Shown here piece by piece: positions 60,979 through 61,818 of a stretch of DNA of 64,000 nt. A model generated the notes under the pieces. The model was not told the origin of the DNA, did no database searches, and worked only from the letters and a program-made list of their open reading frames with translations. This stretch comes from an uncultured Gammaproteobacteria bacterium (lineage in GTDB: Bacteria > Pseudomonadota > Gammaproteobacteria > JAIEPX01). The stretch is from NCBI GenBank assembly GCA_963725255.1, contig CAVRXV010000011.1, positions 99,846-163,845 of the forward strand, written 5' to 3'. The position numbers were made by a program, and so were the translations under genes. Positions within the stretch are counted from its first letter, which is position 1, and every line of letters begins with the position of its first letter.

Positions 60979-61803
60979 CTATGCCGCCAAAGAATTTTTA
61001 TCTAAAACAGCATTCATTAATCGATTTTGCACTGCCAGACCATCACGTAGTGCACGCACATCGTGTGTTCGAATCCAATCTACACCTTGCGCAGCAGCAA
61101 ATAATTCTGCACTAAGAGTTCCCGCACCTGCATTCGCTGGAGTTTGTTCTGTGATTCTTTGAATAAAAGATTTTCGAGAAACGCACACTAAAACTGGCAA
61201 ATTAAATTCTTGTTTCAATGCTTTTATGTGCTGTAAAACCATCAAAGAAGCTTCAGGTTCAGAACTCAAAAAATATCCCATACCAGGATCTAAAGTAAGC
61301 CTTTCTTTTGCAACACCAGCATTCACTAAAGCATTCACTCGTTGATGAAAAAAGTGAAAAATTTTCGACAGTATCGTATTGGGATCAGTTAAAACTCGTT
61401 GAGCTGGTTTCGTTCCGTGAATATTATGCATGACAACTAATCGACAATTACTTTGGGCCAATTCGGGATAAAATTGTGGGTGCGCAAAACCTTGTACATC
61501 ATTGATTATTTGAACACCTTTTGAAATAGCATAACGCTGTGTTTCTGGATGAAATGAATCCACCCCAATAGGAATTTGCATTGATAATAATCTATCTAAT
61601 ACAGGTTCAAGATGTTCTATTTCTTTTTCCGGTGGAGCAACTGGTGAATCAGGATGACTTGAAGATGGCCCTAAATCAATTATAGAAGCTCCCGCCTTAA
61701 ATAATGATAATGCATGCGAAATTGCATTTTCTGGACTCAGAAACTGACCACCATCAGAATAAGAATCTGGCGTGATATTGACAATACCCATGATCATAGT
61801 CAT
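60979..61803 (-). CDS. folP: Dihydropteroate synthase, Sul-like type, in the chromosomal folP position
   Basis: GIVNITPDSYSDGG, GPSSSHPD, DSFHPETQRYAI, DPGMGYFLSSEPEASL, VSRKSF, IRTHD; start at 61803 or 61818. Confidence 0.95.
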   Translation of the reverse strand: MTMIMGIVNITPDSYSDGGQFLSPENAISHALSLFKAGASIIDLGPSSSHPDSPVAPPEKEIEHLEPVLDRLLSMQIPIGVDSFHPETQRYAISKGVQIINDVQGFAHPQFYPELAQSNCRLVVMHNIHGTKPAQRVLTDPNTILSKIFHFFHQRVNALVNAGVAKERLTLDPGMGYFLSSEPEASLMVLQHIKALKQEFNLPVLVCVSRKSFIQRITEQTPANAGAGTLSAELFAAAQGVDWIRTHDVRALRDGLAVQNRLMNAVLDKNSLAA

Positions 61804-61818
61804 TGAGCACCCACTCAT

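Follow-up and report, generated by a model that had tools for sequence, protein, structure and literature searches.

The folP gene of the analysed window, a stretch of 64,000 nucleotides from an uncultured gammaproteobacterium (assembly GCA_963725255.1, contig CAVRXV010000011.1, positions 99,846 to 163,845), appears to encode a functional dihydropteroate synthase (DHPS) that is resident in its host and the only one there, and this enzyme belongs to the Sul type, together with the mobile enzymes Sul1, Sul2 and Sul3. The explanation that fits the data best, with a probability of about 0.8, is an ancient replacement of folP in its own slot between ftsH and glmM, followed by vertical inheritance and an occasional swap of alleles. 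This reading is preferred because the gene has a native GC content. The host belongs to an uncultured, order-level gammaproteobacterial group that comprises, by genome grouping, one genus with six species, is distinct from Legionella, Coxiella and Aquicella proper, and carries Legionella-like effector genes.

According to the proposed course of events, an ancestor of the lineage would have exchanged its ordinary folP, exactly in the ftsH-folP-glmM operon, for a Sul-type gene of a large environmental family. The new gene would then have been inherited vertically, with its composition drifting to that of the genome under purifying selection, and species would now and then have exchanged whole alleles, with the conserved ftsH and glmM on either side serving for homologous recombination. 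In the resulting enzyme, alpha6 would carry the two-residue Sul insertion (Met180-Gly-Tyr182-Phe-Leu184). Such a history would be a clean case of an essential gene being exactly displaced in its slot by a foreign version.

Identity of the folP product

The longest open reading frame (ORF) of folP (60979–61818) encodes 279 aa. The proteins of the relatives within the genus begin at the Met corresponding to residue 6 of this ORF, and the public protein P0001 has 274 aa; therefore, translation probably begins at ATG 61803 and gives a product of 274 aa. The peptides on which the initial annotation had based its proposal of a Sul-type enzyme were all recovered in the translation, namely GPSSSHPD, DSFHPETQRYAI, NDVQGF, YPELAQSNCRLVVMH, DPGMGYFLSSEPEASL and TLSAELFAAAQGVDWIRTHDVRALRDGLAV. 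The protein scored 253.3 bits against TIGR01496 (cut-off 162.6; residues 8–263) and 206.6 bits against PF00809 (cut-off 25.5), and it is, judged by these profile scores, a full-length DHPS. The residues involved in ligand binding (S54, N106, D107, D177, K216, S217, R250 and H252) were invariant or near-invariant in the alignment, and from its sequence the enzyme would be expected to join dihydropterin pyrophosphate (DHPP) to p-aminobenzoic acid (pABA) like any DHPS.

The proposed affinity to the Sul enzymes rather than to ordinary FolP was borne out by the search of solved structures, which was headed by Sul2 (267 bits), Sul3 (257 bits) and Sul1 (230 bits), whereas the best ordinary DHPS, that of Xanthomonas, reached 158 bits, the E. 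coli enzyme 142 bits and the FolP of Coxiella burnetii 84 bits. In a tblastn comparison with plasmids, identity amounted to ~50% for Sul2, 46% for Sul3 and 43% for Sul1, and it was 28–37% to FolP from 35 other families of Gammaproteobacteria, whose loops are without exception of the DPGFGFGK type. The scores against the NCBIfam models remained below the cut-offs in each case (Sul2, 282.9 against 575; Sul3, 261.2 against 475; Sul1, 228 against 600; Sul4, 98 against 600). Since the Sul1–3 scores are far under the cut-offs, the protein is Sul-like but cannot be counted among the alleles of the named sul genes. The AlphaFold2 model, for which a 24-sequence alignment served as input, had a mean predicted local distance difference test (pLDDT) value of 90, and its 15 best matches in the PDB were all chains of Sul1–3, with template modelling (TM) scores of 0.92–0.97. 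The nearest one was the Sul3 intermediate complex (root-mean-square deviation 1.0 Å, TM 0.97). Ordinary DHPS, with 26–34% identity, ranked after these 15 chains.

The enzyme may therefore be compared with several known systems. Its likeness to Sul2 (PDB 7S2J/7S2K, NF000295) includes, besides the level of identity, the predicted fold (TM 0.93–0.96) and the retained Met, Leu and ligand residues, but, unlike sul2, the gene of the window is not mobile, and the Phe179 of Sul2 is a Tyr here. With Sul3 (PDB 7S2L/7S2M/8SCD, NF000296) and Sul1 (PDB 7S2I, NF000294) it shares the Sul-type clade and motif, although it is more distant from both and stays under their family cut-offs. The ordinary gammaproteobacterial FolP proteins of E. 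coli (1AJ0), Yersinia (3TYZ), Coxiella (3TR9) and Xanthomonas (6DAY) have in common with it the TIM-barrel fold, the operon position and presumably the reaction; however, they are only 26–37% identical to it, their DPGFGFGK loops are without the insertion, and they are sulfonamide-sensitive.

The folP locus and its flanks

The initial annotation had placed the gene between ftsH and glmM, its native slot, and had described it as free of a flanking insertion sequence (IS) or integron; this description holds. On a chromosomal contig of 227 kb, folP is accompanied by ftsH and glmM, by genes for an Ank-repeat protein and a permease, by PolX and by an HTH-M78 gene. The locus has no plasmid, class 1 integron or IS common region (ISCR)/IS context, no mobile element lies within ~8 kb, and Pfam detected no transposase or integrase domain in the ORFs scanned, which cover the window from 55.9 kb onwards and the 7 kb that follow it. 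The GC content of folP (0.385) is close to that of the 31 long ORFs of the window (0.390 ± 0.027), and none of these ORFs has a lower GC at third codon positions than folP (GC3, 0.219), so that the base composition of folP bears no trace of recent import.

Both flanking genes are of the gammaproteobacterial type. FtsH is ~70% identical to its counterparts in diverse Gammaproteobacteria, and GlmM shows 55–65% identity to gammaproteobacterial proteins versus 45–51% to the GlmM of alphaproteobacterial Sul-type carriers. This holds for every 40-residue window of GlmM, including the first one, beside folP (0.53 versus 0.34). A piece of alphaproteobacterial glmM transferred together with folP was considered and ruled out, as the GlmM start is gamma-like. 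These comparisons support native flanks and a folP that alone is foreign.

The host genome (G000) has 2.8 Mb in 18 contigs and is 89.9% complete. It contains a single PF00809 gene, which is folP, whereas 6-hydroxymethyl-7,8-dihydropterin pyrophosphokinase (HPPK) and dihydrofolate reductase (DHFR) are encoded elsewhere. With both of these enzymes present and folP as the sole PF00809 gene, folP is therefore the working DHPS of the folate pathway. Minus-strand consensus matching revealed no terminator-like sites in the intergenic sequence among ftsH, folP and glmM. The matches on this strand all fall within the ftsH coding sequence (~62324–62344 and 63052–63069), and their number did not exceed that in shuffled sequence. 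From this arrangement, the three genes may be co-transcribed.

The ftsH sequence is interrupted. Relative to two other genomes of the genus (G001 and G004), it has insertions of +1 at ~62711, +2 at 62473–62474 and +1 at ~62322, which split the gene into two ORFs and garble ~50 residues of the protease domain after the HEAGH motif. The broken gene is the only FtsH/M41 gene of G000, and the breaks probably stem from an error in the long-read consensus rather than marking a pseudogene. The folP frame is uninterrupted and aligned end to end with those of the relatives.

Phylogeny of Sul-type FolP

A first tree of 151 FolP sequences and a subsequent one of 99 sequences (IQ-TREE, LG+C20+F+G4) agreed with each other. 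A phylogeny had been named in the initial annotation as a check, and in it the protein fell into the Sul-type clade; branching with ordinary FolP was not seen. The branch between this clade, of 67 rows including Sul1–3 and the window protein, and ordinary FolP had a length of 1.4 substitutions per site and 100/100 support. The result did not depend on the motif, since without the 25 motif-region columns the Sul-type clade retained 100% and the window clade 98% SH-aLRT support. The ten gammaproteobacterial sequences located in the slot formed a 100/100 clade, the internal order of which tracks GlmM divergence.

The sister of the window clade was a pair consisting of an unclassified "proteobacterium" (L018) and a Myxococcota metagenome-assembled genome (MAG; L053), with 98/94 support, placed above the pair L032 and L052. 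Both L018 and L053 lack the ftsH-folP-glmM arrangement, and therefore no donor can be named. Import into the lineage nevertheless appears to be the better-supported direction. As for the mobile enzymes, Sul2 was sister to a Parvibaculum genome (100/99), which matches the published result, Sul1 formed a long branch of unsettled place, and Sul3 paired with a Prevotellaceae MAG (100/93) within a tight, Bacteroidota-centred clade that spans several phyla. On the tree, the window gene is a cousin of the mobile sul1–3 genes and not their reservoir or source. Accordingly, of the earlier suggestion of an "overlooked reservoir or relative of sul genes", the kinship stands, but the role of a reservoir does not, the gene being sister to none of Sul1, Sul2 and Sul3.

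One further observation concerns Sul3 itself. Its sequence (L175) belonged to a 100/100 clade of similar and partly identical genes (L074, L047, L041, L042, L049, L056, L057, L063, L025 and L034), the hosts of which are Bacteroidota, Planctomycetota, Treponema, Bacillota, Omnitrophota and Ignavibacteriota. Nearest to Sul3 was the Prevotellaceae MAG and not Leptospiraceae, as proposed in 2019. This distribution suggests a mobile Sul3-like family among environmental and gut anaerobes.

Carriers in the lineage and beyond

In all six species of the genus, a Sul-type folP lies between ftsH and glmM (61–78% identity), and the genomes G001–G005 gave one DHPS match each. Four metagenomic contigs (L184–L187) also have a Sul-type folP in this slot. 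Two of them (L186 and L187) fall within genus-level diversity, whereas L184 (GCA_030154765.1, 44% GC) and L185 (48% GC) are more distant: their GlmM proteins are 74% and 70%, and the N-terminal parts of FtsH 83% and 78%, identical to those of the window, which is nearer than in any species-representative gammaproteobacterium, yet FolP is only 54–55% identical. On these two contigs, Ank, WipA-phosphatase and kinase genes lie next to it. In an even draw of 400 species of Gammaproteobacteria, a Sul-type gene was found only in three genomes of the host genus and in G332. The G332 gene (G332:C58:44734-45510, L190) is 50% identical to that of the window, but this genome also holds an ordinary FolP (G332:C114:43762-44478), and therefore the Sul-type gene there is an accessory copy.

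Outside this group the family is broad. While a scan of species genomes with the single protein gave no matches, an alignment-built one, based on the motif and using one genome per species, found carriers of the Sul motif in at least 570 species genomes, 570 of the 600 stretches listed encoding relatives. Among the matches listed, the carriers include Micropepsaceae/Rhizomicrobium, Parvibaculales, Rhodobiaceae and Stellaceae, and further Leptospiraceae, Streptomyces and other Actinomycetota, Bacteroidota, Myxococcota, Binatia and a Thermoplasmatales MAG. In many Alphaproteobacteria the Sul-type gene is likewise placed between ftsH and glmM. It is the only DHPS gene in a Micropepsaceae, a Leptospiraceae and an Azotimanducaceae MAG, and an extra copy in Streptomyces as well as in G332; the PF00809 matches of ~1230 aa in those genomes presumably represent MetH. 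A related observation is that the 3.1-Mb MAG to which L052 (CAMBZJ010000013.1) belongs is titled Klebsiella pneumoniae, although its sole DHPS is a Binatia-like Sul-type enzyme; the organism label is probably wrong.

Sul-type chromosomal folP is thus a known and widespread class, of which the present lineage is a new carrier. Chromosomal folP genes with the Sul motif have already been published for Rhodobiaceae and Leptospiraceae, both named in the initial annotation, together with minimum inhibitory concentration (MIC) data (PMC6335563), and Gly-Phe-Phe has been seen in hundreds of deposited DHPS sequences (PMC10328974). The word "overlooked" is hence only partly apt. For the lineage as a carrier, no report was found in the limited literature searched. 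The gene resembles the FolP* of Rhodobiaceae/Parvibaculaceae (Parvibaculum lavamentivorans) and Leptospiraceae in its chromosomal location, its housekeeping role as a DHPS and the Sul insertion of two residues, in clustering with Sul1–3 independently of the motif, and in a native composition that implies an ancient origin; it shares with the FolP* of Rhodobiaceae the flanking ftsH and glmM (PMC6335563). It differs from FolP* in its gammaproteobacterial, Legionella-like host, in its sequence (48–56% identity), in forming a separate clade and in having Tyr where the motif begins with Phe after Gly. With this lineage, a whole order of uncultured Gammaproteobacteria that looks host-associated joins the known carriers of chromosomal Sul-type DHPS. 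Taken together, the Sul-type enzymes form a family that is large, ancient and spread over multiple phyla, rather than a peculiarity confined to two families, which bears on pre-existing resistance to a purely synthetic drug. In practice this matters little, given a non-mobile gene in uncultured organisms.

The Sul motif and predicted sulfonamide insensitivity

The loop of the window protein reads DPGMGYFLSS and contains, relative to DPGFGFGK, an insertion of two residues in alpha6. The reading of this loop in the initial annotation, with F replaced by Y, proved accurate. In the HMMER alignment Met180 is paired with Met177 of Sul2, Tyr182 with Phe179 and Leu184 with Leu181, so that the substitution occupies the critical position. 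The ordinary FolP loops found were all of the form DPG[FILY]GF[GA]K; the pattern search was blank for two sequences (L122 and L152). Tyr at position 182 is present in the window and in the independently assembled genomes G001–G003, and Phe in G004, G005 and L184–L187; therefore, Tyr is a real, derived state of one subclade. Among the 67 Sul-type sequences the aligned residue is Phe in 48, Tyr in 18 and Asn in one, a distribution that takes four or more changes on the tree, and Tyr at this site is shared by a whole actinobacterial Sul-type clade. A second natural change of alpha6 was noted in G002 (L005/L015), the motif of which is DPGMGYLL, with the second Phe replaced by Leu.

The significance of this position is known from the mobile enzymes. 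Phe179 of Sul2 (Phe178 in Sul1, Phe177 in Sul3) is a steric barrier to the sulfonamide group, and the second Phe of the motif stacks on the pterin ring in Sul1 (PMC10328974). Replacement of Phe by Gly or deletion of Phe abolishes the resistance of Sul1–3, and the Leu contributes too (PMC10328974). When the FolP* of Parvibaculum and Leptospira were expressed in E. coli, the MIC of sulfamethoxazole was 512 or >512 versus 8 mg/L (PMC6335563). It is predicted that the FolP of the window is likewise insensitive to sulfonamides despite having Tyr for Phe. The intrinsic resistance proposed in the initial annotation is only a prediction, because Tyr replaces exactly the Phe needed for resistance. The natural Tyr variant at a resistance-determining position offers a ready test of the steric-exclusion model.

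Probable allele exchange and rate of evolution

Within the genus, the end of ftsH, all of folP and the start of glmM have a history unlike that of the flanks. G001 is the nearest relative of the window in ftsH and glmM, yet its folP resembles that of G002, with breakpoints at the folP edges. Between the window and G001, the synonymous divergence (dS) is 0.41 in the ftsH and glmM flanks and 1.05 in folP, whereas between G001 (L177) and G002 (L180) it is ~1.2 in the flanks and 0.30 in folP. Nucleotide identity in sliding windows gave the same picture: for the window and G001 it is 89–98% in the flanks and 74–81% in folP (~61870–60870), and for G001 and G002 it is 80–90% and 85–95%, respectively. 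A single event would account for this mosaic, and the data indicate that a G002-like allele replaced the folP of G001 by recombining within the conserved sequence on either side; alternatively, the mosaic could stem from a MAG contig that is chimeric.

The ratio of nonsynonymous to synonymous divergence (dN/dS) is 0.13–0.17 for FolP and 0.02–0.07 for the flanks, values by which folP is kept under purifying selection. In a small sample comprising the host genus and some alphaproteobacterial pairs, Sul-type FolP diverges at 2–5 times the rate of GlmM, while the pairs of ordinary FolP, also few, show 1.4–1.6 times the GlmM divergence, with one outlier pair at 0.8. In two alphaproteobacterial pairs, Tepidicaulis L067/L090 (74% versus 95% identity) and the Rhodobiaceae-like L059/L088 (93% versus 99%), FolP of the Sul type located in the slot was ~5 times more diverged than GlmM, which is similar to the situation in the host genus. 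Allele exchange or fast evolution of folP may thus be general for Sul-type genes in this slot. A further idea, which is speculative and has an outside chance at best, is that the Sul-type active site of the lineage is under ongoing selection by a natural, DHPS-directed antimetabolite from hosts or competitors. The fast divergence of FolP, the change of Phe to Tyr at the sulfonamide-excluding residue and the gene-sized allele swap point in this direction. If it were true, natural "sulfonamide-like" chemistry would explain Sul-type enzymes that long predate the drugs.

Alternative explanations

Several points weigh against a working, drug-insensitive Sul-type enzyme that was acquired by in-place replacement. 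The genomes are MAGs, so that the claim of no second folP rests on a completeness of 78–99%. The frameshifted ftsH means that expression of the operon cannot be accepted at face value, although an assembly error is likelier. The deep order inside the Sul-type clade is a polytomy, and placing the window clade as the first Sul-type branch costs 30.6 log-likelihood units and is not rejected by the approximately unbiased (AU) test (p = 0.168); therefore, the direction of transfer, import or in-situ origin, is not proven. The constraint used, the window clade together with ordinary FolP, probes a basal place in the Sul-type clade and not a nesting among ordinary FolP. Finally, the sole substitution at the Tyr182 site for which an MIC is given in the literature examined is Phe to Gly, and it led to the loss of resistance. 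This last point leads to the most serious alternative, which is unlikely but deserves attention: the enzyme could be Sul-type by descent yet sulfonamide-sensitive or weakly insensitive, that is, a plain housekeeping DHPS. It is favoured by the alignment of Tyr182 with a residue whose side chain is essential in Sul1–3 (PMC10328974) and by the change of the next Phe to Leu in G002. However, the proposed mechanism is steric and Tyr is no smaller than Phe, Met180 and Leu184 are kept, and Tyr arose independently in several Sul-type clades. Moreover, Phe-to-Trp variants of Sul1 and Sul3, made for fluorescence assays, kept the interactions with the substrates (PMC10328974).

The remaining alternatives concern the origin of the gene. 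It is improbable that the Sul-type DHPS evolved here from the lineage's own folP and then spread outwards to Alphaproteobacteria, Leptospiraceae and other groups, even though the ancestral proteobacterial slot, the native flanks without a scar, the AU result and the fact that the sampled ordinary FolP nearest to the Sul clade is gammaproteobacterial (G013/L008) would all agree with it. The free tree nests the window clade within the Sul-type clade, G013 is not close by GlmM (55.6%), and in the published analysis the nearest relatives of the Sul clade are the FolKP of Chlamydiae (PMC6335563). Import also fits better with the long stem of the clade and with the lack of intermediates in ~397 other gammaproteobacterial species. 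A recent gain of a mobile sul-like gene under anthropogenic sulfonamide pressure could be suspected from the resemblance to Sul2 and Sul3 and from the allele swap within the genus, but it is very improbable, given the low NCBIfam scores, the absence of an IS, integron or plasmid context, the native GC with the low GC3, and the divergence of the gene along with the lineage to 54–78% identity. An artefact, either a mis-binned or chimeric contig or a convergence of the motif in an ordinary FolP, is hardly credible. The ftsH indels in a long-read metagenome assembly would speak for it; however, folP is intact between native genes of a long contig, the same arrangement is shared by the independent genomes of five species and by four unrelated contigs from metagenomes, and the membership of the clade is independent of the motif columns.

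Features of the locus

Table 1. Positions of folP, its motif and the surrounding features in the window
Feature	Position	Strand	Remarks
folP, Sul-type dihydropteroate synthase	60979..61818	(-)	longest ORF 279 aa; probable start ATG 61803 (274 aa)
Sul motif codons D177-P-G-M180-G-Y182-F-L184	61267..61290	(-)	TAT of Tyr182 at 61273-61275
Putative recombination block (ftsH end, all folP, glmM start)	~60870..61870	(-)	history unlike flanks within genus
ftsH, gammaproteobacterial type	61819..63769	(-)	directly upstream, stop abuts folP ORF; broken by three small insertions
glmM, gammaproteobacterial type end to end	59638..60969	(-)	starts 9 nt past folP stop, GGGAGA before it
Best sigma-70-like promoter match, TTTCCA-17-TATAAT	63809..63837	(-)	upstream of ftsH; consensus match only

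A gene encoding a 1180-aa Ank-repeat, effector-like protein (55935–59477, plus strand) lies beside glmM. Its counterpart in G003 (L181:6303-9863) has 63% identity and is also located by glmM; therefore, this insertion is not unique to G000.

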